The position numbers and the translations under genes are program-made. The notes beneath the pieces were generated by a model. That model saw nothing but the letters and a program-made list of their open reading frames with translations, was not told the DNA's origin and ran no database searches. Shown here in pieces: positions 18,765-63,273 of a stretch of DNA of 64,000 nucleotides; position 1 is the stretch's first letter, and each line of letters opens with the position of its first letter. The stretch comes from a virus. The stretch spans positions 1 to 64,000 of IMG/VR virus record IMGVR_UViG_3300025889_000073. One strand, written 5' to 3'.

Positions 18765-19243
18765 TGTTCCCTATTGGTGCCATAATTAAAGGTTTAATCT
18801 ACTTAGCAATTGTATTGGTGGTTGCAGGTGGATTTTATTATATTACTGGTTTGCGAGCAGACCTTGCCATATCAGAGGCAAACAATGCTAAACTAGAAGA
18901 AGGCATCAAAGAACAACAAGAGTTGTTAGAGTCGATGAAGAAAGACATTGCACAGATTCAAGAAACAAATAAACAATTACAAGAACAAAACGAGAAACAA
19001 AAACAAGATGTTGATGCATTGGCCAAAAAATTTGATAAAAGAGATTTTGGTGTATTTGCCGCAGCACAAACAGAAAAGGCAGAAAAATTAATAAATCGTG
19101 GTACAGTTAATGCACTCAGATGTATAGAATTGGCATCAGGTGCACCTTTAACAGAAGAAGAAAAGAATGCTAAAACACCTATGGAGGCCAATCGTGAATG
19201 TCCTGCGCTTATCGACCCTAACTTTAAGCCTATCCTTAATTAG
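18764..19243 (+). CDS. i-spanin (Rz-like)
   Basis: N-terminal TM helix, long coiled coil, C-terminal Cys; overlaps a lipoprotein gene. Confidence 0.7.
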   Translation: MFPIGAIIKGLIYLAIVLVVAGGFYYITGLRADLAISEANNAKLEEGIKEQQELLESMKKDIAQIQETNKQLQEQNEKQKQDVDALAKKFDKRDFGVFAAAQTEKAEKLINRGTVNALRCIELASGAPLTEEEKNAKTPMEANRECPALIDPNFKPILN

Positions 19244-20552: not shown

Positions 20553-20600
20553 ATTAACTCCTATTGACACCACAACTGTGGTGTGTTATATTATGGTTCT

Positions 20601-21626
20601 ATGTTATCAGTTGATTCAAAGTATATAAGGTTACTTTCTTCTCGCTTGCGAAACTTCAAGCAGAAGAATAATTACCTATGGAATTTCTCCTGCCCGTATT
20701 GTGGCGATTCCCAAAAGAATAAAACAAAGGCAAGAGGATATGTTTTTCAAAAAGGCACCGATTTGTTCTATCGTTGCCATAACTGTGGAGTGAGTACAAA
20801 TGCAGGTAACCTCATTAAACAAGTTGACGGTGCATTACACAAGGAGTATGTTCTCGAGCGGTACACTTCCGGTAAATCCAATAACGCCCGTACCGCCAAT
20901 ACAATCCTCAACATATCGCCACCGAGATTTGATAAGGTTGCAAAACAGAAATTCTTTGAACACGGAGAATTCGTCAACAATTTACCGAGTGGACATTTTT
21001 GTTTAGATTATTTGGCAAAACGTAAAATACCAGAAAAGTTTTACGATAAATTATTATTCACACAACACTACAAACAATTCTGTGATGCCCTAATACCCAA
21101 TCATGGCAAAATAATAATCGATGATGCAAGGCTTGTAATACCATTTTACAATGAGTATAATGAGTTGGTTGCTGTCTCAGGTCGTGCCCTAGAGACAGGA
21201 GACAAGACCTTGAGATATGTTACAATACGAACTAACGAATCTGATAGTAAACTTGTTTATGGTTTAGACAGAATAGATAAGAAGAAAACCGTAAAGATTA
21301 TAGAAGGACCATTGGATTCATTGTTTATAAGTAACTGTGTAGCAAGTGGTGATGCAAATCTAACAATTACGGCAAAAAATATTGATTGTGAAAAAATATT
21401 AATTTTTGATAATGAACCTCGAAATAAAGAGATTGTGAAGATGATGCAGGATGCAATCAAATTAGATTATAATGTTGTCATTTGGCCAGATACCGTAATT
21501 GGTAAAGATATAAATGAGATGGTGATGAACGGCCTATCACCTGATGAAATTGAAAAAATTATAAGTATTAACACCTCTAAAGGTTTGCAAGCTCAAACCA
21601 AATTTGTTTTTTGGAAAAAAGTATGA
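20601..21626 (+). CDS. DNA primase (T4 gp61-like)
   Basis: Zn finger CPYCGDS...CHNC; TOPRIM EGPLDS, FDNEPRN, KDINEM; TTGACA-17-TATATT promoter at 20564-20592. Confidence 0.93.
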   Translation: MLSVDSKYIRLLSSRLRNFKQKNNYLWNFSCPYCGDSQKNKTKARGYVFQKGTDLFYRCHNCGVSTNAGNLIKQVDGALHKEYVLERYTSGKSNNARTANTILNISPPRFDKVAKQKFFEHGEFVNNLPSGHFCLDYLAKRKIPEKFYDKLLFTQHYKQFCDALIPNHGKIIIDDARLVIPFYNEYNELVAVSGRALETGDKTLRYVTIRTNESDSKLVYGLDRIDKKKTVKIIEGPLDSLFISNCVASGDANLTITAKNIDCEKILIFDNEPRNKEIVKMMQDAIKLDYNVVIWPDTVIGKDINEMVMNGLSPDEIEKIISINTSKGLQAQTKFVFWKKV

Positions 21627-22318
21627 AAATAAAATTGATTAGTTATTCACAACACGCTGTTGATCCGTCAATCGGCCTCGATATTGAGTTGGACTTGATG
21701 AATATGCAGGATTTGATTGCGTATTGTGCTAGAGTTTCAAATCCATCCAATCAATCAAACACAGAAACTTCCGAGAAATTAATTCGTTACTTAATCAACA
21801 ATCAACATTGGTCACCACTTGAAATGGTGAGCGCTTGCTTGGAAATTGAAACGACTAGAGATATTGCTAGACAGATGTTACGCCACAGGTCATTCTCGTT
21901 TCAGGAATTCAGTCAGAGGTATGCAGACCCGACCAAAGATTTGGATTTTGTGATTAGAGAAGCAAGACTACAAGATAAAACAAACAGACAAAACTCTGTT
22001 CAAATTGATATGAATAATGATGAGCATCGATATATCGCTGTTGGGTGGGAAGAAATGCAGAAACGTGCTATCAATGAAGCACGCAACGCCTACGATTGGG
22101 CAATTGCTAAAGGTATTGCCAAAGAACAAGCTCGAGCTGTATTGCCTGAAGGGAATACAGTTTCTCGCCTCTACATGAACGGCACCTTGCGTTCGTGGAT
22201 TCACTATATACAACTCCGTTCTTCTAATGGAACACAGAAAGAGCACATGGACGTGGCCAAAGCGTGTGCTGAAGTAATATCAAAAGTGTTCCCTATGTCT
22301 AAAGAGTTTGTAGAATAA
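21623..22318 (+). CDS. thyX: Flavin-dependent thymidylate synthase
   Basis: RHRSFSFQEFSQRY ThyX motif; HWSPLE. Confidence 0.95.
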   Translation: MKIKLISYSQHAVDPSIGLDIELDLMNMQDLIAYCARVSNPSNQSNTETSEKLIRYLINNQHWSPLEMVSACLEIETTRDIARQMLRHRSFSFQEFSQRYADPTKDLDFVIREARLQDKTNRQNSVQIDMNNDEHRYIAVGWEEMQKRAINEARNAYDWAIAKGIAKEQARAVLPEGNTVSRLYMNGTLRSWIHYIQLRSSNGTQKEHMDVAKACAEVISKVFPMSKEFVE

Positions 22319-22336: not shown

Positions 22337-24145
22337 ATGGAAGAAATTGTACATGGTATCAAGGTAGACTATAATCGGGACACATTGTTTGATAAATTAG
22401 GACTGACAAGACTAAAAGAAAGTTACATGAAAGATGATGAAGTTTCACCACAAGAAAGATTTGCCTTTGTTTCAAGCTCGTTTGGTTCCACTCCGGAACA
22501 CGCCCAACGACTTTACGAATACAGTAGTAAACATTGGCTTAGTTATTCCACTCCTATCCTTAGTTACGGTCGTAGCAAGCGTGGGTTGCCTATATCTTGC
22601 TTCCTCCCGTATCTCGACGATTCTGCGGAAGGATTAGTTGATACTTTATCAGAAGTAAATTGGCTTTCAATGTTGGGAGGAGGTGTTGGAATTGGAATCG
22701 GTATTAGATCTGCTGATGATAAGTCTGTGGGGGTCATGCCTCACCTTAGGACTTACGATGCTAGTTCGCTTGCTTACAGACAGGGACGTACTCGTAGAGG
22801 TAGTTATGCTTGTTATCTTGATATCAGCCACCCTGACATACTCATATTTTTGGAAATGCGAAAGCCAACCGGCGACCAAAATATGCGTTGTCTAAACTTG
22901 CATCATGGAATTAATATTACTGATGATTTTATGAATTTAATTGAAAGGTGTATGATTGATAAAGATGCAGATGACACATGGGAACTAAAAGACCCGCACA
23001 CAGGTGAGGTGCGTGACAGCGTGCCTGCTAGAGAATTGTGGCAACGTATCTTAGAGATTCGTATGCAAACCGGCGAACCTTATTTACATTTCATTGACAC
23101 CAGTAATCGTGCAATGCCTGAGTTTCAAAAGAAATTAGGACTAAGCATCAAACAATCGAACTTGTGTTCTGAAATTATTTTACCTACAGACAAGAAGCGT
23201 ACTGCTGTTTGCTGTCTTTCATCCGTTAACTTGGAGTATTTTGATGAATGGTCTAAAGAGAAACTTTTTCTTAGAGATGTTGCTGAAATGCTTGACAATG
23301 TTCTTCAGCATTTTATTGATAATGCTCCTTCTGCTGTTAAGCGTGCCGTATATTCTGCTCGTAATGAACGCAGCATTGGTATCGGTGCTCTTGGATTCCA
23401 CGCATACTTACAAAAACAAAACCTGCCATGGGAATCAGCACAAGCAACAGGTTTAAACATAAAAATGTTCAAACATATAAGGGAGAATTTAGATGTCGCA
23501 AACAAGGAACTCGGTGCTGAGAGAGGTGAAGCACTCGATGCAGTCGGCACTGGTCTTAGGTTTAGTCATGTTATGGCAATTGCTCCCAATGCTTCTTCTT
23601 CCATCCTTATGGGCAATACCTCTCCTAGTATTGAACCTTATCGTGCTAATGCTTATCGCCAAGATACATTATCAGGAGCATATCTTAATAAAAACCGATA
23701 CTTAGATAAAATTATAAAGGAAAAATGTGATGGTGACACTAAGTTGGACTATAACGAAATCTGGTCAAGTATTATCGCAAACGATGGAAGCGTTCAACAT
23801 CTTGAATTCTTGGACCAATGGACCAAAGATGTATTTAAAACATCCATGGAAATTGACCAAAGATGGATTGTTGACCATGCAGCTCACAGGCAACAATATA
23901 TCGACCAAGCACAATCGGTCAACCTATTCTTTAGGCCTGATGTAAACATTCTATTGCTCCATGCCGTACACTTTCAGGCATGGAAACAAGGCCTCAAAAC
24001 ACTTTACTACTGCCGTTCAGAAAAACTAGCAAAGGCTGATAAAGTTGCTAAAAAAATTGAACGTGAAGTGATTAAAGAAATTGATTTGTCAGCACTAACC
24101 AATCTATCGGAAGGTGAAGAAATTTGTCTTGCTTGTGAAGGTTGA
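22337..24145 (+). CDS. nrdA: Ribonucleotide reductase class Ia alpha subunit (no ATP cone)
   Basis: PISC, SNLCSEI, APNASSS, KTLYY, C-terminal CLACEG. Confidence 0.96.
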   Translation: MEEIVHGIKVDYNRDTLFDKLGLTRLKESYMKDDEVSPQERFAFVSSSFGSTPEHAQRLYEYSSKHWLSYSTPILSYGRSKRGLPISCFLPYLDDSAEGLVDTLSEVNWLSMLGGGVGIGIGIRSADDKSVGVMPHLRTYDASSLAYRQGRTRRGSYACYLDISHPDILIFLEMRKPTGDQNMRCLNLHHGINITDDFMNLIERCMIDKDADDTWELKDPHTGEVRDSVPARELWQRILEIRMQTGEPYLHFIDTSNRAMPEFQKKLGLSIKQSNLCSEIILPTDKKRTAVCCLSSVNLEYFDEWSKEKLFLRDVAEMLDNVLQHFIDNAPSAVKRAVYSARNERSIGIGALGFHAYLQKQNLPWESAQATGLNIKMFKHIRENLDVANKELGAERGEALDAVGTGLRFSHVMAIAPNASSSILMGNTSPSIEPYRANAYRQDTLSGAYLNKNRYLDKIIKEKCDGDTKLDYNEIWSSIIANDGSVQHLEFLDQWTKDVFKTSMEIDQRWIVDHAAHRQQYIDQAQSVNLFFRPDVNILLLHAVHFQAWKQGLKTLYYCRSEKLAKADKVAKKIEREVIKEIDLSALTNLSEGEEICLACEG

Positions 24146-24972
24146 TTATGATTGAAAAATTAAATATGAAGGTCAATGCGACCGAGTTGAGAACTACAAT
24201 ACCAAAATTGAAAGAGATTGGACCTATGGTTTTTCAAGGTTCCGAATTTGGTTACAAAAATTTTGGTGGTTGGAATCTACAAAGTAGAACGGGTGATTAC
24301 AAAGATGGTTTTCAAGTAGGTGTTGAAAAGTGTTGGAGAAATGGAAAATTTGACTATAGACTTGCTAAATTCTTAAACTATTCTCACGCTTTCGAACACA
24401 ACAATAAAACTCAAGCTTGTTTAAAACCTTACGCCACAATACTAAATTTTTTAGAATCGGAAGGTTTTTATCCAAGAAGAGCTAGAGTTACCTGTTTAAA
24501 AGCAGGTTCTAATAGCATCATACACAGAGATGCGCCTGATGATGTTTATATGTGTAGAATACATATACCTATCATAACAAACGACCAATGTTATCATTGG
24601 ATGGATTATAAAGGTGACCAAAAATATTTTCATATGCCAGCTGACGGAAGTGTTTTCATCTTACCTGTAAATGTGATGCATCGAATTACGAATCAATCCA
24701 AACACGACAGATATCATATGATTGTTGACGTTTATGATACGAAAAAGGTCACGAAAAATTTTAAGTATGATGGTGATATAAATTTTTTAATAAATGAAGC
24801 CAAAGAATATAGGAAAATAATTGATTCAACACCATTACCATGGTATTGGAAAATTGTTTATTCGATTGGTAGACAAATTGTTGTAACCAAATTTAAAATG
24901 GAACAAAAAATGATTCATGCTTCTTATAAACTAAATTCTACAAAATTTGTTCGTTCTACAATATCAAAATGA
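24142..24972 (+). CDS. 2OG-Fe(II) oxygenase, aspartyl/asparaginyl beta-hydroxylase (AspH/LpxO-like) family
   Basis: HRD...RIHIPIITN...H.ITN...RYHMIVD facial-triad pattern. Confidence 0.7.
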   Translation: MIMIEKLNMKVNATELRTTIPKLKEIGPMVFQGSEFGYKNFGGWNLQSRTGDYKDGFQVGVEKCWRNGKFDYRLAKFLNYSHAFEHNNKTQACLKPYATILNFLESEGFYPRRARVTCLKAGSNSIIHRDAPDDVYMCRIHIPIITNDQCYHWMDYKGDQKYFHMPADGSVFILPVNVMHRITNQSKHDRYHMIVDVYDTKKVTKNFKYDGDINFLINEAKEYRKIIDSTPLPWYWKIVYSIGRQIVVTKFKMEQKMIHASYKLNSTKFVRSTISK

Positions 24973-25760
24973 ATATAAGAAATAATTCATTTGTAAAAAC
25001 ATATATCACATCAACATATACAGTATCACAAGTTGTGATAATGACACAACTAATGTTGTCGTTCATTGGTATAATTTATATTGCAACAAATTTTTCTTGG
25101 GCGTATGTCGGATTGTGTTTTTTTTGGTACGCTGCTTTATTGTGGTGGTCACATCATATAGGATTACATAGATATTTTTCACACAATTCTTTTAATGTGA
25201 ATAAATTTTGGCATATTGTATTGTGTTACACCAGTTGTTTAATTTCTTTTGGTTCTCCATTTTCATATTCTCTAATGCACAGAGCGCACCATAAACATTC
25301 AGATACAGATAAAGATACTCATGCTCCTACGAAGATTGGATTTTTAAGAGTCATGTTTTTCAATTGGAAATTGGAAAATGTTAATCTAATGGACAGAAAT
25401 AAAAAAATAGATAACTGGGCAATCAATGCTCACACCTTCTATACACTAATTATTTTGTTGTTTTATGCACTACTACATACAATTGACACAGGACTTGCTT
25501 TCACTTATAATATAGGTGTTACGGTAGCATTATTTGGTGTTGCTTATGTTAATGTATTTTCTCACATCAAAAATCCTTTAAACTATAGGAATTTTGATAC
25601 TGACGATTTATCATCTAATAATTTATTTGTTGGTATGGTGGGTGGTGAATGGCACAACAACCATCACAATAATCCTCAAAAATGGAATCAAAGAGTTAAG
25701 TGGTGGGAATTAGATATACCTGCTCAAATTATAAAATTAATTAAAAAGGAACAACAATGA
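24969..25760 (+). CDS. Membrane fatty-acid desaturase (delta-9 / DesC-like)
   Basis: His boxes HRYFSH, HRAHH, HNNHH; TM helices; WWELD. Confidence 0.9.
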   Translation: MNIRNNSFVKTYITSTYTVSQVVIMTQLMLSFIGIIYIATNFSWAYVGLCFFWYAALLWWSHHIGLHRYFSHNSFNVNKFWHIVLCYTSCLISFGSPFSYSLMHRAHHKHSDTDKDTHAPTKIGFLRVMFFNWKLENVNLMDRNKKIDNWAINAHTFYTLIILLFYALLHTIDTGLAFTYNIGVTVALFGVAYVNVFSHIKNPLNYRNFDTDDLSSNNLFVGMVGGEWHNNHHNNPQKWNQRVKWWELDIPAQIIKLIKKEQQ

Positions 25761-26008
25761 AGTTAATAAAATTTTATGCTGATTGGTGTCAGCCATGTAA
25801 AATGTTATCCAAAGTTATGAAAAACATTGAATTTCCATATCCAGTAGAAGAAGTAAATATTGACAAAGATAATGAAACAACTATGAATTATGGAATTCGT
25901 AGTGTTCCTGCATTATTATTGATTGATGAAAATAATAATATTGTTAAGAGAATGAGTGGTTACATGGACGCAAATAAATTAAAACAAGAACTAGGATTGG
26001 ACAACTAA
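25757..26008 (+). CDS. Thioredoxin
   Basis: FYADWCQPCK, IRSVP. Confidence 0.92.
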   Translation: MKLIKFYADWCQPCKMLSKVMKNIEFPYPVEEVNIDKDNETTMNYGIRSVPALLLIDENNNIVKRMSGYMDANKLKQELGLDN

Positions 26009-26009
26009 A

Positions 26010-26999
26010 ATGGTAAAAAATAAATCTGACATTACATCTGAAAGAGATGCGTTTAAACCATTTCATTATCCATGGGCATATGAGGCGTGGTTAAAACACG
26101 AACAAGCCCATTGGTTACATAGTGAAGTGCCTATGCTTGAAGATGTAAAAGACTGGAAGAATAAACTAACAAAAGAACAAAAACAATTCCTGACACACAT
26201 CTTCCGTTTCTTTACACAAGGTGATATTGATGTTGCAGGTGGTTATGTAAAGAACTATCTGCCTTACTTTGCACAACCAGAAGTTCGTATGATGCTTCTT
26301 GGCTTTGCTGCAAGAGAGGCATTACACATCGCTGCATACTCACATCTTATTGAAACTCTTGGTCTGCCAGATACCACATACAATCAATTCTTGGAGTATC
26401 AACAGATGCGTGATAAACACGATTATGTGAAGGAGTTGTCATCACAGAATTCTACAAAAGAAAATACAGCCAAACATATTGCTGTGTTCTCGGCATTTAC
26501 TGAAGGTATGCAGTTGTTCTCATCATTCATTATGTTACTGAACTTCCCACGACATGGAATGATGAAAGGTATGGGACAGATTGTTACATGGTCTATTGTT
26601 GATGAAACCATGCACACAGAAAACATGATTAAGTTGTTTAGGACTTATATACAAGAGAACAATGAGATTTGGAATGATGAACTCAAATCTGAAATCTATG
26701 TTGTTGCTGAGAAGATGGTTGAACTAGAAGATAAATTTATTGACCTTGCTTTTGAAATGGGTGAAATGCCAAACCTAACATCAGAAGAAGTGAAACGATA
26801 TATTCGATATATTGCTGACCGTAGATTAATTTCTATGGGTATGAAAGGCATATTTAAGGTTAAGAAGAATCCTTTGCCATGGGTTGAAGAAATGATTAAT
26901 GCGCCAATTCACGGTAACTTCTTTGAGAATCGTGTTACTGATTACGCTAAAGGTGCATTAAAAGGTTCATGGGAAGATGTATGGGGGAAAGCAGCATGA
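26010..26999 (+). CDS. nrdB: Ribonucleotide reductase class Ia beta subunit
   Basis: [38 protein letters not shown]. Confidence 0.96.
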
Positions 27000-28201
27000 A
27001 GAAAAGAGATTACACACAAGAAACAGTTAATAAGTTAAGAGGTAGTATACAGATTGAACATACTTTGGCCAAACATGGCGCCAGACACCTTAGAGAATTG
27101 CTGCAACGTGAACCTTACATTAATACACTTGGTGCATACAATGGCCAGCAGGCAGTACAACACGCAAAGGCAGGCCTGAAAGCAATTTATCTATCTGGTT
27201 GGCAAGTTGCTGCAGCACAAAACTCAGCACTACAAACTTATCCCGACCAATCATTGTATCCAGTTGATTCTGTACCTAAGGTTGTAAAGGCTATCAATAA
27301 TGCATTACGCCGTGCTGACCAAATTGAATGGTCTGAAGGTAAATTGTCAACATATTATTATTTGCCTATTGTCGCCGATGCTGAAGCAGGTTTTGGTGGT
27401 GCATTGAATGTCTATGAACTGATGATGGCCATGATTGAAGCAGGCGCATCTGGCGTACACTTTGAAGACCAATTGTCGAGTGAAAAGAAATGTGGCCATT
27501 TGGGTGGTAAGGTCCTTGTACCTACAAGTCAAATGATTCGAACACTTAATGCTGCACGTTTGGCTGCTGACGTAGCGGGTGTTGATACTGTTATTATGGC
27601 TCGTACTGATGCGGAAGCAGCGACACTTATTACCAGTAACCACGACCCATTAGACAAGGATTTTATCATCGATGAAAGGACTGAAGAAGGTTTTTACAAA
27701 TTTAAAAATGGCATTGATGCTTGTATTAGCAGAGGTCTTGCTTTTGCCCCTTACGCTGATCTCTTATGGTTTGAAACTAGCACACCTGATCTGGCACAAG
27801 CTAAAAAATTCGCCAATGCTATACACGCTAAGTTTCCAGACCAAATGCTTGCTTACAATTGCAGTCCTAGTTTTAATTGGCGCAAGTTTTTATCTATAGA
27901 TGAGTGTGAAACATTCCAACGTGAATTAGGAGAGCTTGGTTATAAGTTCCAGTTCATTACACTAGCAGGTTTTCATAATGTTAATCTTGCCACATTTGAA
28001 CTAGCAGAAGCATACAAACAACGTGGAATGGCAGGTTATGCTGAGATGCAAGAACGTGAGTTTGCAGCACAAGAACGTGGTTTCACTACAGTTAAACATC
28101 AACGTGAAGTTGGTGTTGGTTACTTTGACATTATTAGCGAGGCAGTTGGTGCCAAATCTACAGTAGCAAATAAAACATCAACTGAAGCGGAACAGTTTTA
28201 A
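26996..28201 (+). CDS. aceA: Isocitrate lyase
   Basis: Catalytic KKCGH signature, [34 protein letters not shown]; ATGA overlap with nrdB. Confidence 0.95.
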
Positions 28202-28212
28202 TGGGAGATACT

Positions 28213-28368
28213 ATGAACACACTACACCACATATGTGATAACTGTAATTCAGAATTTCTCATAAAGTACCACGATGAAAGTGTTGAGGATACTCCCAGTT
28301 ATTGTCCATTTTGTGCTGAATATATAATTGATATAGACGACATTGAAATGGAAGAAGATGATGAATGA
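28213..28368 (+). CDS. Small Zn-ribbon protein (not in ORF track)
   Basis: CDNC...CPFC and acidic tail; GGGAG SD. Confidence 0.65.
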   Translation: MNTLHHICDNCNSEFLIKYHDESVEDTPSYCPFCAEYIIDIDDIEMEEDDE

Positions 28369-28796
28369 GTTGGACGTATAAGGGACAAGACTTCACAGAA
28401 GATATGATTGGTGATGCATATGGTTATGTCTATTGTATCACCAATCTACAAAATGGTAAAAAATACATCGGAAAGAAGTTTTTTACTAAATCTGGACAAA
28501 AACAAAAAAATGGTAAGCGTAGGAGAGTTCGGAAGAAATCGGACTGGCTGACCTACTGGGGCAGTAATAAACGCCTCCAAGAAGATTTTCGCAATATTGG
28601 TGAAGATAATTTTAAGAGAGAGATTTTACACCTCTGTAAGACACGTTCCGAGTGTTCCTATCTAGAGCTCAAAGAACAAATGGACAATAGAGTATTAGAA
28701 TCCGATAAATGGTATAATGATTGGATTATGGTCAGAGTAAGGAAGGACCATATTTTATCTAAAGGCAGCACCAATACTTATAATGAAAATAAGTGA
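28365..28796 (+). CDS. GIY-YIG nuclease
   Basis: GYVYCITN...KYIGKK, YWGS, E..EQ, WYN. Confidence 0.8.
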   Translation: MSWTYKGQDFTEDMIGDAYGYVYCITNLQNGKKYIGKKFFTKSGQKQKNGKRRRVRKKSDWLTYWGSNKRLQEDFRNIGEDNFKREILHLCKTRSECSYLELKEQMDNRVLESDKWYNDWIMVRVRKDHILSKGSTNTYNENK

Positions 28797-43681: not shown

Positions 43682-44476
43682 ATGAGAAAACTTTTAGTCG
43701 CAATCGCAATGGTTACGGCTTGGTCTGGTGTTTACGCTCAGACTTACGATAGCACTACACTTGTAGATACCAATAATAATTCTACATCCACAAGTACGGT
43801 CACGAGCACGAATACAAACACCAACACTAATACGAATGTCAATACAAATGACACAACGGTGAATAGCACCTCTACGGCTACGAATACTAACAATAATACA
43901 AACACGAACACCAGCACCTCTACGTCTACAAACACCAATAATAGTACCAATACAAATACTAATACATCTACCAGTACCAACACAAATACTAACACGAACC
44001 AAAACGTGAATACTGGTGACATGACGAATCGGAACATTAACGATACGAAGATGGAACAAACCATCAAATCTCCACCACCTACAGCTGTTGCACCTTCAAT
44101 GATGAGTGGCGGTGGAAATGATTTGTGTACGACTGGTGTAAGCGGTGCTGTACAAACACAAATACTAGGTATCTCTGGTGGTTCTACTGTAAGAGATTTG
44201 AATTGTGAAAGATTGAAGTTATCTAAAACTCTTTATGATATGGGAATGAAAGTGGCAGCTGTATCTGCATTGTGTCAAGACCGCCGTGTTTTTGATGCAA
44301 TGTGGAATGCAGGCACACCTTGTCCGTTTGAAGGCATGATTGGTAATGCTGCTAAATTGGCTTGGGAGGCACACCCAAATAAAATTCCTGAATACGAAAC
44401 GAAGAAAGAAGATGACACTTTCCAAAAGATTGGCATTGGGTTTGGCGTTGCTGCTGTGCTCGGTGTCTTATTCTAA
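43682..44476 (+). CDS. Secreted/membrane-anchored protein with Thr/Asn-rich repeat
   Basis: Signal peptide, about 95 aa of T/N/S repeat, Cys-containing domain, C-terminal TM. Confidence 0.7.
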   Translation: MRKLLVAIAMVTAWSGVYAQTYDSTTLVDTNNNSTSTSTVTSTNTNTNTNTNVNTNDTTVNSTSTATNTNNNTNTNTSTSTSTNTNNSTNTNTNTSTSTNTNTNTNQNVNTGDMTNRNINDTKMEQTIKSPPPTAVAPSMMSGGGNDLCTTGVSGAVQTQILGISGGSTVRDLNCERLKLSKTLYDMGMKVAAVSALCQDRRVFDAMWNAGTPCPFEGMIGNAAKLAWEAHPNKIPEYETKKEDDTFQKIGIGFGVAAVLGVLF

Positions 44477-45806
44477 CGCACAAGTAAGCACTACTGGTAA
44501 CCTAATCCAAAACAATGCTTGGACAGGTTGTTGGACACCTACGGCCGATGGCTTTTGGGGTGGGACTTCTGGTGGACCATGTCCTGGTATTAGTAATGAT
44601 GGGTATGATGGTAGTAATCAAATCATCTTTAGTTATCAACAACAAACGATAAGTCAGACCACTGCTCTGGCAAATGCCTTGCCTAACTCTGGTACTGGTT
44701 TACAAGTGAATGGTTATAACTGGCATTGGCACGCAAAGAACTCAAACATCAATGATGGACAGCCTGGTGGTTATGATACTACTGCCTACATTACTGTTGA
44801 CTTGTTGAATGCTTCAGGCTCTATTCTTGAGTCTGACAAGTATGATTATGGTTATAGGATATCGGATTGGATCAATCCAAGTGGCACAAGGACATACACA
44901 AACCCATACAGTTTATCTACGGCCGATTCAATTCGTTTAAGTGTAACTGGTAAAGATGATGGGTTCTGGGCCGGTTACTGGGGTCCAGAGTTCATGCACG
45001 TTACTTTAAATGTTAATTATTCAGTAGATCCATGTTATGATAATCCTTTATACTCTCCAACCTGTTCAGGTTTTGCCGCTGCTCTTGCTTCTTTGACGGA
45101 AACATCTACAGCAGGAACAACCGATGCAGTCGATGGTGTATCGCAAACTGTTACACCTACTACTGTAGAAATAGTTGAAGAAACAAGTAATGCAGCGGCA
45201 CCCACTATTGATGCTGGTGGTATTGAAGTGTCCACTACAGGCGAATTATCTGTACCCGATGGCATTCCTGCCGTTGTGAAAGAAACTAAAAAAGAAGAAG
45301 AAAAAGAGAAAAAAGAAATCAATTATAGTTTGATTGCAATGGTTGTCAGACAGGCAACTGATTTAACAAATGTAATGAGTGTTGTAAATCAAAGTATCAT
45401 GCAGTCATCAAGTGTTGCCTCAAATCCAATAACAACAGAACAAGAAGAAGCGATTATTGAACAGGCAACAACAAGTCAAACAACAACGACAACTGCAACA
45501 ACACAACAACAAGAAAATACAAATCAAACTGTAACGACAGAAACGACAACAGAAAAACCAAAACAACAAACAACGGTTGCTGCTAAAAAACAAGATAATG
45601 AAGCAGCAAGCGGTGGTGTTAGTATGAATGACTTTGCTAAAGTACCTTCTGGTTTTGACGCATATCAAACTCAAATGAGAGATGTAGCATTTTATGCACC
45701 AAAAGAAATTTACAAAGGTCAAACTAATGTTGATAATCGTAGAGCTATGAGAGCACTTGGATCTGATAGGTTACACCAAGAAATGGTGAGGCAACAATAC
45801 AAATGA
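44412..45806 (+). CDS. Secreted protein (beta-rich N-domain, T/Q-rich linker)
   Basis: Signal peptide ending SNA; DDGFWAGYWGP; DPC..NPLYSPTC. Confidence 0.6.
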   Translation: MTLSKRLALGLALLLCSVSYSNAQVSTTGNLIQNNAWTGCWTPTADGFWGGTSGGPCPGISNDGYDGSNQIIFSYQQQTISQTTALANALPNSGTGLQVNGYNWHWHAKNSNINDGQPGGYDTTAYITVDLLNASGSILESDKYDYGYRISDWINPSGTRTYTNPYSLSTADSIRLSVTGKDDGFWAGYWGPEFMHVTLNVNYSVDPCYDNPLYSPTCSGFAAALASLTETSTAGTTDAVDGVSQTVTPTTVEIVEETSNAAAPTIDAGGIEVSTTGELSVPDGIPAVVKETKKEEEKEKKEINYSLIAMVVRQATDLTNVMSVVNQSIMQSSSVASNPITTEQEEAIIEQATTSQTTTTTATTQQQENTNQTVTTETTTEKPKQQTTVAAKKQDNEAASGGVSMNDFAKVPSGFDAYQTQMRDVAFYAPKEIYKGQTNVDNRRAMRALGSDRLHQEMVRQQYK

Positions 45807-60599: not shown

Positions 60600-60929
60600 A
60601 TGATTGGTATAGATTTAACTAGAATTTCTAGGTTTGAAGGTATTGATTTAGAACGCCTTGGTATGAAATTAGGTCATAAATTAGATAGTCCAAAAACTGC
60701 TGCTAAAGTTTGGGCCTGTCTTGAGGCTTTAACAAAAGCTGAAGGAAAAAAGTTTAACCCCAAAAATATAAAGTTACTTTTTAACGTAGCCTGTGCGCCA
60801 ACGGTAAAAGGTGTTGACCCTAATCCTATGGTTTATTCTGACCGTGTATTATCTGGTGAATATATATTATCTTTAACCCATGAAGGCGACTATGTTGCCG
60901 TTGTTGCTTTGCGTAAGGAAATGAAATGA
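60600..60929 (+). CDS. acpS: Holo-ACP synthase (AcpS-type phosphopantetheinyl transferase)
   Basis: IGIDL..ISRF, W(AC)LEALTKA, LSLTHEGDYVAVV. Confidence 0.75.
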   Translation: MIGIDLTRISRFEGIDLERLGMKLGHKLDSPKTAAKVWACLEALTKAEGKKFNPKNIKLLFNVACAPTVKGVDPNPMVYSDRVLSGEYILSLTHEGDYVAVVALRKEMK

Positions 60930-61189
60930 CAAGAGAAGAAGTGATTAATCAAATAAGTGAACTTTTTAATTCCAAATATGGCATTTTGTTGACAGATTAT
61001 CCTGAAGATACTGATGTTACACTATTCGCTGAAATCAATGATAAATTAGATTCTATTGAATTTATGAATTTTATTTTTGATGTTGAGGATATGTTTGAGA
61101 TTAGAGATGCTGGTGACAATGGTGCACCAACAAAATTAGGTGAATTATACGATATGTTCGAAAAAGCTATTTTGGAAAAACAAAAATGA
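60926..61189 (+). CDS. Acyl carrier protein
   Basis: 87 aa, acidic; LDS(43)IEFMNFIFDVEDMFEI helix-II motif. Confidence 0.8.
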   Translation: MTREEVINQISELFNSKYGILLTDYPEDTDVTLFAEINDKLDSIEFMNFIFDVEDMFEIRDAGDNGAPTKLGELYDMFEKAILEKQK

Positions 61190-61971: not shown

Positions 61972-62083
61972 TCGAATATATCGCCTTTTGGGTGGTGAAT
62001 ATGTTTGGTGGCAAACTTTAGGATATTTAATCATACACTCATTAATTTTTTATCAAGTTGTGTACTTGGAATATATTAAATGA
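61940..62083 (+). CDS. Small membrane peptide (not in ORF track)
   Basis: About 47 aa, ...YVWWQTLGYLIIHSLIFYQVVY...; ATGA-coupled to the ketosynthase. Confidence 0.45.
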   Translation: MMMQMIKHIINRIYRLLGGEYVWWQTLGYLIIHSLIFYQVVYLEYIK

Positions 62084-63273
62084 ACAGACGAGTTGTTATT
62101 ACTGGTATTGGATGTGTCACACCAATTGGTGTTTCTTATACTGAAGTCAAAGATTCTTTGATGACCGGTAAATCTGGTATCAAATATTATGAAGACATAA
62201 AAGCAAATCTTGGTCGAGTTGAGTTTGATATTGATTCACAAATTGAACCGTTAGACCAAACTATCACAGATAGAATTTCCAGATTTGCATGGTATTCTTA
62301 TTTGAAATGTATAGAAGATGCCAAAGTTACAAGTGAAGATGTTGATGGAATTTTCTTTGGTGTTGGTTTTTGTGGCAGTTATACGATTGAGAACACTTTT
62401 CCAGAATATTTAAAAAATCGCCGGGCAAGACCAAACACTTTAGTTAATATTTGTCCTAATTCTCCTGCTTGTTTCATTGCACTCAAGGAAAAAATTACAG
62501 GCATAAATTTTACATATAATAACGCTTGTGCTTCATCAACTTTAGCTTTGGGTGAAGCATATGAAAAAATTTCAAATGGCCAATGTGATGGTATGATTGT
62601 CGGCGGCACAGAATCCTCCGTTAACGATTATGGCATCACAACGTGGCACGGAATGAGAGCTATATCACCAAAAGATGAAGGTCCAACAGCGTGTAGACCT
62701 TTTTCTAAAGATAGAACTGGTGTTGTTGTGGCTGAAGGTTGTGCTGTTTTTTATTTGGAAGAATATGAAAAAGCTAAAGCTCGTGGCGCTAAAATTTATG
62801 CTGAGATATTTGGATATGGAACATCATGGGGCACAGAGTCTATGACCAAACCTAGTGTCGAAGGTGAAAAGAGGGCTATATTAAAAGCTATAGATAAAAT
62901 ACCACAAGGCAGAAAGGTAACCTTTATATCAGCTCATGGTACAGCTACTCCTACTGGTGATATGGTTGAACTACAAGCTATTAGTGAATGTTTTGGAGAG
63001 GAAGTTGAGGAAATTGCAATCACCTCGACAAAATCTCTACACGGTCATACACTAGGTGCCGCAGGGGCAATTGAAACTTTAGGATGTATTGCCGTTTTAG
63101 AAGAAGATAGAATTATACCAAATTGGCATTTAGGTGAACACGACCCGAATACGCCAGAAAATGTATTCTTACCCACTAAACCTATTGACAAAAAGCAGGA
63201 TTTGTGTTTTAATAACTCATTTGCTTTTGGTGGCAGCAATGCCGTTTTAGTTCTTGGTAAATGTTTGGAGTGA
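62080..63273 (+). CDS. fabF: Beta-ketoacyl-ACP synthase (FabF/FabB family)
   Basis: RRVVITGIG, ACASS (Cys), AHGTAT and GHTLGAAG (His, His), NSFAFGGSNA. Confidence 0.93.
   Translation: MNRRVVITGIGCVTPIGVSYTEVKDSLMTGKSGIKYYEDIKANLGRVEFDIDSQIEPLDQTITDRISRFAWYSYLKCIEDAKVTSEDVDGIFFGVGFCGSYTIENTFPEYLKNRRARPNTLVNICPNSPACFIALKEKITGINFTYNNACASSTLALGEAYEKISNGQCDGMIVGGTESSVNDYGITTWHGMRAISPKDEGPTACRPFSKDRTGVVVAEGCAVFYLEEYEKAKARGAKIYAEIFGYGTSWGTESMTKPSVEGEKRAILKAIDKIPQGRKVTFISAHGTATPTGDMVELQAISECFGEEVEEIAITSTKSLHGHTLGAAGAIETLGCIAVLEEDRIIPNWHLGEHDPNTPENVFLPTKPIDKKQDLCFNNSFAFGGSNAVLVLGKCLE

Follow-up and report, generated by a model that had tools for sequence, protein, structure and literature searches.

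The window analysed here comprises the first 64 kb (64,000 nucleotides) of a 171,728-bp virus record, IMGVR_UViG_3300025889_000073, which is rated complete by CheckV and represents a T4-like phage from water with a genome of about 172 kb (G000). Within its ribonucleotide reductase (RNR) region lie a gene for an AspH-family Fe(II)/2-oxoglutarate (2OG) hydroxylase, P0001, and a gene for an SCD1/DesC-type di-iron membrane desaturase, P0002, and these two genes are the subject of this report. The insertion site is framed upstream by nrdA, which encodes the class I RNR large subunit (22337-24145; PF02867 E 7e-105, PF00317) and follows thyX (21611-22318), and downstream by nrdB, which encodes the small subunit (26010-26999; PF00268 E 1.5e-74); all genes under discussion are on the plus strand. 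P0001 is encoded at 24148-24972 (listed open reading frame (ORF) 24142-24972; PF05118 Asp_Arg_Hydrox 29.6 bits, cut-off 22.6 bits) and P0002 at 24969-25760 (PF00487 FA_desaturase 58.6 bits, cut-off 29.7 bits), followed by a NrdC-like thioredoxin gene (trx, 25757-26008; PF00085 E 8e-15) that occupies this place in some relatives only. An earlier note on this DNA had described an oxygenase and a desaturase between nrdA and thioredoxin, joined by overlapping stop and start codons. The placement is borne out by the ORFs, Pfam matches and junctions, and the overlaps are real on both sides of the desaturase, where ATGA at 24969-24972 combines the hydroxylase stop with the desaturase start and ATGA at 25757-25760 combines the desaturase stop with the trx start. 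At the first junction the claim fares less well: the nrdA stop TGA occupies 24143-24145 and is overlapped by the listed TTG start at 24142, but the alignment of homologues favours an ATG at 24148 (MIEKL...), 2 nt past the stop. The whole genome holds exactly two desaturase genes and one AspH-family gene (genome scan, 30.6 bits).

The other desaturase, P0003 (61186-61971; PF00487 42.3 bits), belongs to a fatty-acid cassette 36 kb away from the pair, where it is flanked, as had been claimed, by an AcpS-like gene and a private acyl carrier protein (ACP) gene (60600-61189; PF01648 weak, NCBIfam ACP E 4.5e-6) and by a FabF-like ketosynthase (KS) gene (62080-63273; PF00109/PF02801; TIGR03150 fabF 326 bits, below the cut-off of 494 bits). 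P0002 and P0003 align over 257 residues with 42% identity (E 2e-68), and every motif quoted for them in the earlier note is common to both. The profile of the desaturase family, compared with PDB, matched mouse and human SCD1 (4ymk, E 3.6e-29). Similarly, the AlphaFold2 (AF2) model of P0002, with a predicted local distance difference test (pLDDT) score of 90, matched only SCD1 in Foldseek (template-modelling score 0.73, E 1e-8), the next entry being AlkB at E 0.5. Nine histidines are invariant in 23 sequences (H67/H72, H104/H107/H108, H229/H232/H233 and H199), and N195-x3-H199 aligns with the NxxxH of SCD1, asparagine included. Hydrophobic segments cover residues 18-41 and 151-200, and the model contains long helices at 17-40, 44-71, 158-172 and 174-197. 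Because of the SCD1 profile and fold matches, the invariant metal-binding histidines and the aligned asparagine, P0002 is, as judged from sequence and model, an intact SCD/DesC-type di-iron membrane desaturase.

In the desaturase tree, the P0002-type sequences form a monophyletic group (100% SH-aLRT), and this group nests within an 82% clade whose other members are largely desaturases adjacent to KS or ACP, with P0003 as one of them; P0002 and P0003 are therefore paralogues within one phage-specific subfamily, in agreement with the paralogy that the earlier note had proposed. Even the best cellular relatives do not exceed 34% identity, and no cyanobacterial DesC-like protein was the top match. 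Recent capture of the desaturase from a host was considered and rejected, given these cellular matches of at most 34%, the top ones of which come from short contigs of metagenome-assembled genomes (MAGs) that look phage-derived. Among such contigs, phage-type desaturase pairs occur on the 10.7-kb contig of a Pseudobdellovibrionaceae-labelled MAG (L180), which also carries an AspH gene of the phage "core" clade described below (E 1e-78), and on two short contigs labelled Nitrososphaerales (L173/L174). All of these are probably phage DNA binned into cellular MAGs. Additionally, tandem arrays of 5-6 desaturase paralogues were observed at L092:5590-10660, directly after a KS gene, and at L039:5564-12942, and in L064 an isocitrate lyase gene is followed directly by two desaturases.

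The hydroxylase is likewise intact. The AF2 model of P0001 (pLDDT 94.2) forms a double-stranded beta-helix with its beta core at residues 112-197, and Foldseek relates it with probability 1.00 to Cpz10, proline hydroxylases, AspH and PHD2. Across 50 homologues, an H128-x-D130...H180 triad (H128 in at least 90%) and an invariant R190 are found, and the triad and the arginine align with the Cpz10 motif. Pfam, fold and residues thus agree that P0001 is an Fe(II)/2OG hydroxylase of the AspH family, as far as sequence and model can tell. Its closest solved relatives are Cpz10 (7v4f; profile E 7.5e-16 against PDB, Foldseek E 6e-11) and L-proline cis-4-hydroxylase (4p7w; 9e-10 and 4e-9), human AspH being more distant. 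Outside the core, P0001 has an N-terminal alpha/beta part and C-terminal helices at 213-229 and 234-274, with a moderately amphipathic stretch at residues 230-247 (hydrophobic moment, muH, 0.48). No transmembrane segment was found, as no 19-residue window reaches a Kyte-Doolittle value of 1.6; no NCBIfam model matched P0001 at E 0.1, in a library whose inclusion of an LpxO model is unconfirmed; and PHROGs offered no named family. Among the clusters of look-alikes in the ESM Atlas, nearly all are viral. The analogy drawn in the earlier note with LpxO, an AspH-family hydroxylase of lipid A acyl chains, finds no specific support, because P0001 has neither a transmembrane segment nor an NCBIfam or PHROGs family, its solved relatives are of other kinds and its look-alikes are viral. 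As the substrate, a small molecule or the side chain of a protein or peptide is judged likelier than lipid A.

Related loci were gathered through the desaturase (80 viral loci) and through the hydroxylase (79 loci, using a 14-sequence AspH alignment), and their genes were called and clustered; L and G numbers denote the viral loci and records compared with G000. Four dereplicated lineages (L004, L008, L014 and L017) retain the order thyX-nrdA-AspH-desaturase-(trx)-nrdB and are 67-74% identical to G000 in the desaturase, 59-79% in AspH and 83-90% in NrdA; an arrangement kept in four lineages is not due to chance. For strict orthologues of the nrd pair, G000 is the only complete genome, and the related contigs end before the position of the cassette. 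Neither megablast of the nrd region nor tblastn of P0001 and P0002 against deposited phages returned a match (for P0002, 50,697 records at E 1e-5), and tblastn of P0003 gave a weak match to the Pelagibacter phage Mosig only.

The content of the interval between and just after nrdA and nrdB differs by lineage and includes trx, AspH, two kinds of desaturase, isocitrate lyase and SegE. Both inserted genes and trx separate nrdA from nrdB in G000 and L004, while trx is missing between the desaturase and nrdB in L008, L014 and L017. The hydroxylase alone lies between nrdA and nrdB in L099/L100, where no desaturase occurs within 10 kb or on the whole contigs of 34-37 kb. In L096 and L098, nrdA-AspH-nrdB precedes a desaturase gene that belongs to another clade, and L067 and L081 have the order nrdB-SegE-x-desaturase; altogether, desaturases lie near nrdB in 9 of 59 locus groups. 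In G000 itself, nrdB is overlapped at its 3' end by 31 nt of an isocitrate lyase gene (26969-28201; PF00463 E 2e-101), and a SegE-type GIY-YIG homing endonuclease gene lies near the variable region (28365-28796; PF19835 E 7e-39); its cluster (c28) adjoins nrdB in several relatives. Since the content differs from lineage to lineage, the nrdA/nrdB junction behaves like an insertion hot spot in T4-like aquatic phages. Phage T4 itself carries a homing endonuclease gene, mobE, between nrdA and nrdB. As a separate observation, nrdA of L096 takes the form of two ORFs with about 100 nt between them (L096:1797-4132), a split that may reflect an intervening element or a frameshift.

P0001 falls into a tight, phage-specific core clade of T4-like aquatic phages with 100% support, and the positions of this clade extend well beyond the nrd locus. 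Within it, an nrd-locus clade of eight rows (98% support), G000 included, is found entirely in or next to the nrd locus, and only four of the eight rows have the P0002-type desaturase. In six loci, a core-clade AspH gene directly follows the portal gene. In at least 17 dereplicated loci, the core AspH is the last oxygenase of a conserved cassette with the order rSAM(~482 aa)-[0-2 desaturases]-u300-u121-2OG-FeII_Oxy_5-u181-ASPH-PD-(D/E)XK, where rSAM is a radical SAM gene; the cassette is located upstream of gp33-gp59-gp32, and examples are seen at L110:6717-11442, L108:4732-10783 and L167:2281-8271. In the u300 protein, the first 150 residues carry a conserved NCNC-type block rich in Asn and Cys (13-21 Cys, with numerous Asn), and the C-terminal domain is hydrophobic; u181 contains an HxD motif, so that the cassette looks like a system in which a radical SAM enzyme and oxygenases mature a Cys/Asn-rich protein. 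The radical SAM and portal contexts point towards protein or peptide side chains as AspH substrates, but G000 lacks such an Asn-Cys protein. Hidden Markov models (HMMs) of all other partners in the cassette found no match in G000 except for the u300 C-terminal domain, which is homologous to the C-terminal 160 residues of a 1753-aa protein encoded beyond the window (105676-110937, +; HMM E 4e-36). The Asn-Cys block was not found in that protein, and the search for an Asn-Cys-rich substrate protein in G000 returned no coding-strand ORF, only antisense artefacts. Elsewhere in the window, the ORF at 43682-44476 (+) encodes a protein predicted to be secreted, in which a signal peptide is combined with some 100 residues of Thr/Asn/Ser repeats (TNTNTN...); this ORF runs into the start of another one of 488 aa (44340-45806), which likewise has a hydrophobic, signal-like segment.

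Desaturases are infrequent companions of the core clade: one lies near a core-clade AspH in 14 of the 79 loci, and any desaturase at all is present in 3 of 15 whole records. The complete genome of the cultured Prochlorococcus phage P-HM2 (GU075905; gene list in PMC3037559) has two AspH-family genes and an ACP gene far apart, this set of three loci being at 148930-149235, 162110-162373 and 19037-19198, and no desaturase. The association is thus asymmetric: no P0002-type desaturase was observed without the hydroxylase, but the hydroxylase often occurs without any desaturase.

With regard to expression, a sigma-70-like promoter candidate lies upstream of the run c42-thyX-nrdA-AspH-desaturase (20564-20592, +; 11/12 consensus with extended TG, a consensus match only), and the T4 late motif TATAAATA was not found in 20-29 kb. 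Given this site and the lack of a late motif, both inserted genes are probably read through with the early RNR and nucleotide genes, for which the tight same-strand packing with ATGA overlaps also speaks. A perfect sigma-70 consensus (TTGACA-17-TATAAT) was further observed in the 3' part of the P0002 gene at 25483-25511 (+), 245 nt upstream of trx; it is perfect in L004 and near-perfect in L017. This site was not adopted as a promoter for trx and nrdB, as it overlaps conserved codons (I-D-T ... Y-N), and the match may be coincidental for this reason.

The explanation favoured here, which is held at about even confidence, is that P0001 and P0002 are two separately recruited accessory oxygenases, both dependent on O2 and iron, that came to rest at the nrdA/nrdB hot spot. 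The hydroxylase probably arrived first at the nrd locus, and a duplicate of the cassette-type desaturase probably arrived second. P0001 would have a job independent of the desaturase and of KS, because its core clade occurs in most relatives without either. P0002 is predicted most likely to introduce a cis double bond into fatty acyl chains, and its candidate substrates would be a host membrane lipid, an acyl-CoA or an acyl-ACP from the phage's own cassette. Its electrons would come from a host donor, because the phage encodes no plant-type ferredoxin (no Fer2 gene was found in G000).

Several observations weigh against separate recruitment. Among 50 dereplicated desaturase loci, AspH-desaturase adjacency occurs in 10, compared with a mean of 2.9 in shuffled gene orders, and none of 5000 shuffles reaches 10; this enrichment is overstated, because the shuffle control ignores sub-islands of accessory genes. 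In every adjacent pair, the genes point the same way and are separated by -38 to +8 nt, and both gene orders occur. The adjacency appears in unrelated branches of both trees and so has formed repeatedly, and all four P0002-type lineages keep AspH directly upstream, as a functional link would produce. Furthermore, in L010 and L012, which are from distant phages, AspH-like genes, desaturases, ACP and KS stand in one 20-kb cluster together with radical SAM genes. Finally, the preference for a protein or small-molecule substrate of P0001 depends on the neighbourhoods of sister clades and on which relatives have solved structures.

These observations give some credit to a serious but less probable alternative, namely that the hydroxylase and the desaturase form a functional module acting on one acyl chain or membrane lipid, with or without the ACP and KS, the hydroxylase docking to the membrane through its amphipathic C-terminal helix (~230-247). 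Beyond the tight, repeatedly formed adjacency, this alternative can draw on the co-inheritance of the pair in the four lineages, in which AspH identity falls to 59-63%, and on the cultured T4-like Pelagibacter phage Mosig EXVC030M (MT647606), where AspH-like Mosig_00081 is followed by desaturase Mosig_00080, 8 nt apart and co-directional. However, orthologous AspH genes mostly lack a nearby desaturase, and the C-terminal helices of P0001 are also present in desaturase-free orthologues. The comparison with cells is read both ways: among 80 cellular desaturase loci, adjacency to AspH occurs once, on a phage-like contig with a core-clade AspH, so that the arrangement is near-absent from cells, and no pair of an AspH-family enzyme and a fatty-acid desaturase is known from any cellular pathway. 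The Mosig pair had no detectable relative in other isolates, and no paper on hydroxylase-desaturase pairing in phages was found in the literature. An ambitious form of this idea, judged unlikely, is that a phage-specific AspH-SCD module without cellular counterpart, working with the AcpS-ACP-desaturase-KS cassette, would give the infected cell, probably of SAR11 type, a virus-made hydroxylated unsaturated lipid.

The earlier note had gone further still and regarded the pair as a split tailoring module of the acyl pathway 36 kb away. For the desaturase, this is tenable: its nearest relatives are desaturases of ACP/KS cassettes, which makes a shared acyl programme plausible, and P0002 may plausibly work in one lipid programme with the cassette. 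For the hydroxylase, it is doubtful. Co-occurrence was tabulated for 30 desaturase-bearing virus records, not dereplicated and mostly fragments: six have an AspH-like gene and KS, eight AspH only, nine KS only and seven neither. Of the complete genomes, G000 and two 364-kb phages combine an AspH-like gene with KS, and two others have a desaturase alone. The link to the KS cassette, in shared ancestry and presence in the same genome, holds for the desaturase only.

In its strict form, in which the hydroxylase would act like LpxO or OlsC on ACP-bound or lipid-bound acyl chains as a displaced part of the AcpS-ACP-desaturase-KS pathway, the proposal is improbable. In its favour, all elements are present in one complete genome, G000, and also in G006, G007 and G023, jumbo-phage records that are complete or nearly so, and they cluster together in L010 and L012. 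L014, with the pair, and L030, with the cassette, are each ~74-75% identical to G000 and come from the same metagenome (sample 3300020161), which is suggestive. On the other side, Mosig, which is complete, has the pair with neither KS nor ACP, and one of the nine desaturase records with KS and without AspH is 85% complete, so the pair, taken as a family-level module, is not tied to the KS cassette, an outcome that the earlier note had named as refuting its inference. In addition, the AspH clade is older at the nrd locus than the desaturase and persists there beyond it, P0001 lacks both the transmembrane segment and the NCBIfam match, and the substrates of its nearest solved relatives are a nucleoside-peptide intermediate and free proline. 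In the desaturase-free relative G043, no cassette was found in the 2.6 kb from PD-(D/E)XK to the contig end, although a cassette can lie further off, as in L036.

Least probable is that the position itself is meaningful and that one or both enzymes serve nucleotide metabolism or RNR rather than lipids, for example through hydroxylation of an RNR subunit or of a molecule derived from a nucleotide, for although eight lineages have AspH within or beside the nrd locus, desaturases recur near nrdB, Cpz10 acts on a uridine-derived substrate and NrdB, desaturase and AspH all depend on iron and oxygen, sister AspH clades sit elsewhere (at the portal gene and in the radical SAM cassette), the desaturase has the full lipid-desaturase architecture of SCD1 and the junction content varies as at a hot spot.

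Returning to separate recruitment, the significance of the locus depends on what the recurrent adjacency stands for. Should it reflect a shared chemistry, T4-like phages that abound in fresh and sea water, those of SAR11 among them, would produce lipids or acylated products beyond the capacity of their hosts, with consequences for the physiology of membranes in infected cells and for lipid biomarkers in water. Otherwise, the locus documents an nrdA/nrdB junction that collects accessory oxygenases. Either way, two genes that resemble one module have been told apart.

Phage lipid desaturases have hitherto been known as single, host-like genes of cyanophages. The cyanophage vFADs are proven Delta9 lipid desaturases acting on C16 chains (Roitman et al. 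2018, PMC5776448), and P0002 resembles them as a DesC/SCD-type membrane desaturase with three histidine boxes that is an accessory metabolic gene of T4-like aquatic myophages. It differs in that the tblastn search of phage records revealed no close kinship to vFADs, and in that the P0002/P0003 family occurs in paralogous pairs or arrays beside KS, ACP, AspH-like and radical SAM genes, partners not described in PMC5776448. SCD1 (4ymk, 4zyo) shares with P0002 the fold, the HxxxxH/HxxHH/HxxHH boxes and the NxxxH ligands, yet P0002 is ~19% identical to it and has 260 residues compared with ~320-360. With JamB/TtuB-type acyl-ACP desaturases and acetylenases, the difference is that P0002 has no adjoining ACP, while P0003 has one.

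LpxO is anchored in the membrane by transmembrane helices. In a comparison of features, P0001 has PF05118 in common with LpxO and OlsC, lipid hydroxylases with the chemistry that the earlier note had in mind, but lacks such a segment and has no lipid A or ornithine-lipid genes alongside. Cpz10, which beta-hydroxylates a uridine-peptide intermediate of caprazamycin (PMC9814697), and 4p7w are similar to P0001 in being small AspH-like double-stranded beta-helix enzymes with an HxD...H triad and a 2OG-binding arginine; P0001 is 18-19% identical to them, has extra terminal parts and stands in no such biosynthetic context.

Among phages, all pelagimyophages have AspH as a core gene, and what sets the freshwater group PMP-D apart is fabF together with stearoyl-CoA desaturase (Zaragoza-Solas et al. 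2020, PMC7029224). In a comparison of gene lists, PMP-D, with fabF, stearoyl-CoA desaturase and a divergent aspartyl/asparaginyl beta-hydroxylase, has the gene set of G000; that paper gives the gene list only, and the position in the nrd operon, the second desaturase and the recurrent adjacency are not described. Compared with the Mosig pair, whose proteins are very divergent and lie in an island of radical SAM, aminotransferase and carbamoyltransferase genes beside tail-fibre genes, the G000 pair stands in the nrd operon. Compared with the radical SAM/Asn-Cys cassette, G000 lacks the other genes, and its AspH has moved to the nrd locus. The single genes are thus already known as phage accessory genes; what is new is a phage-only radiation of desaturases with recurrent partners, which duplicate within genomes and settle repeatedly beside AspH-like hydroxylases, private ACPs, ketosynthases and radical SAM enzymes.

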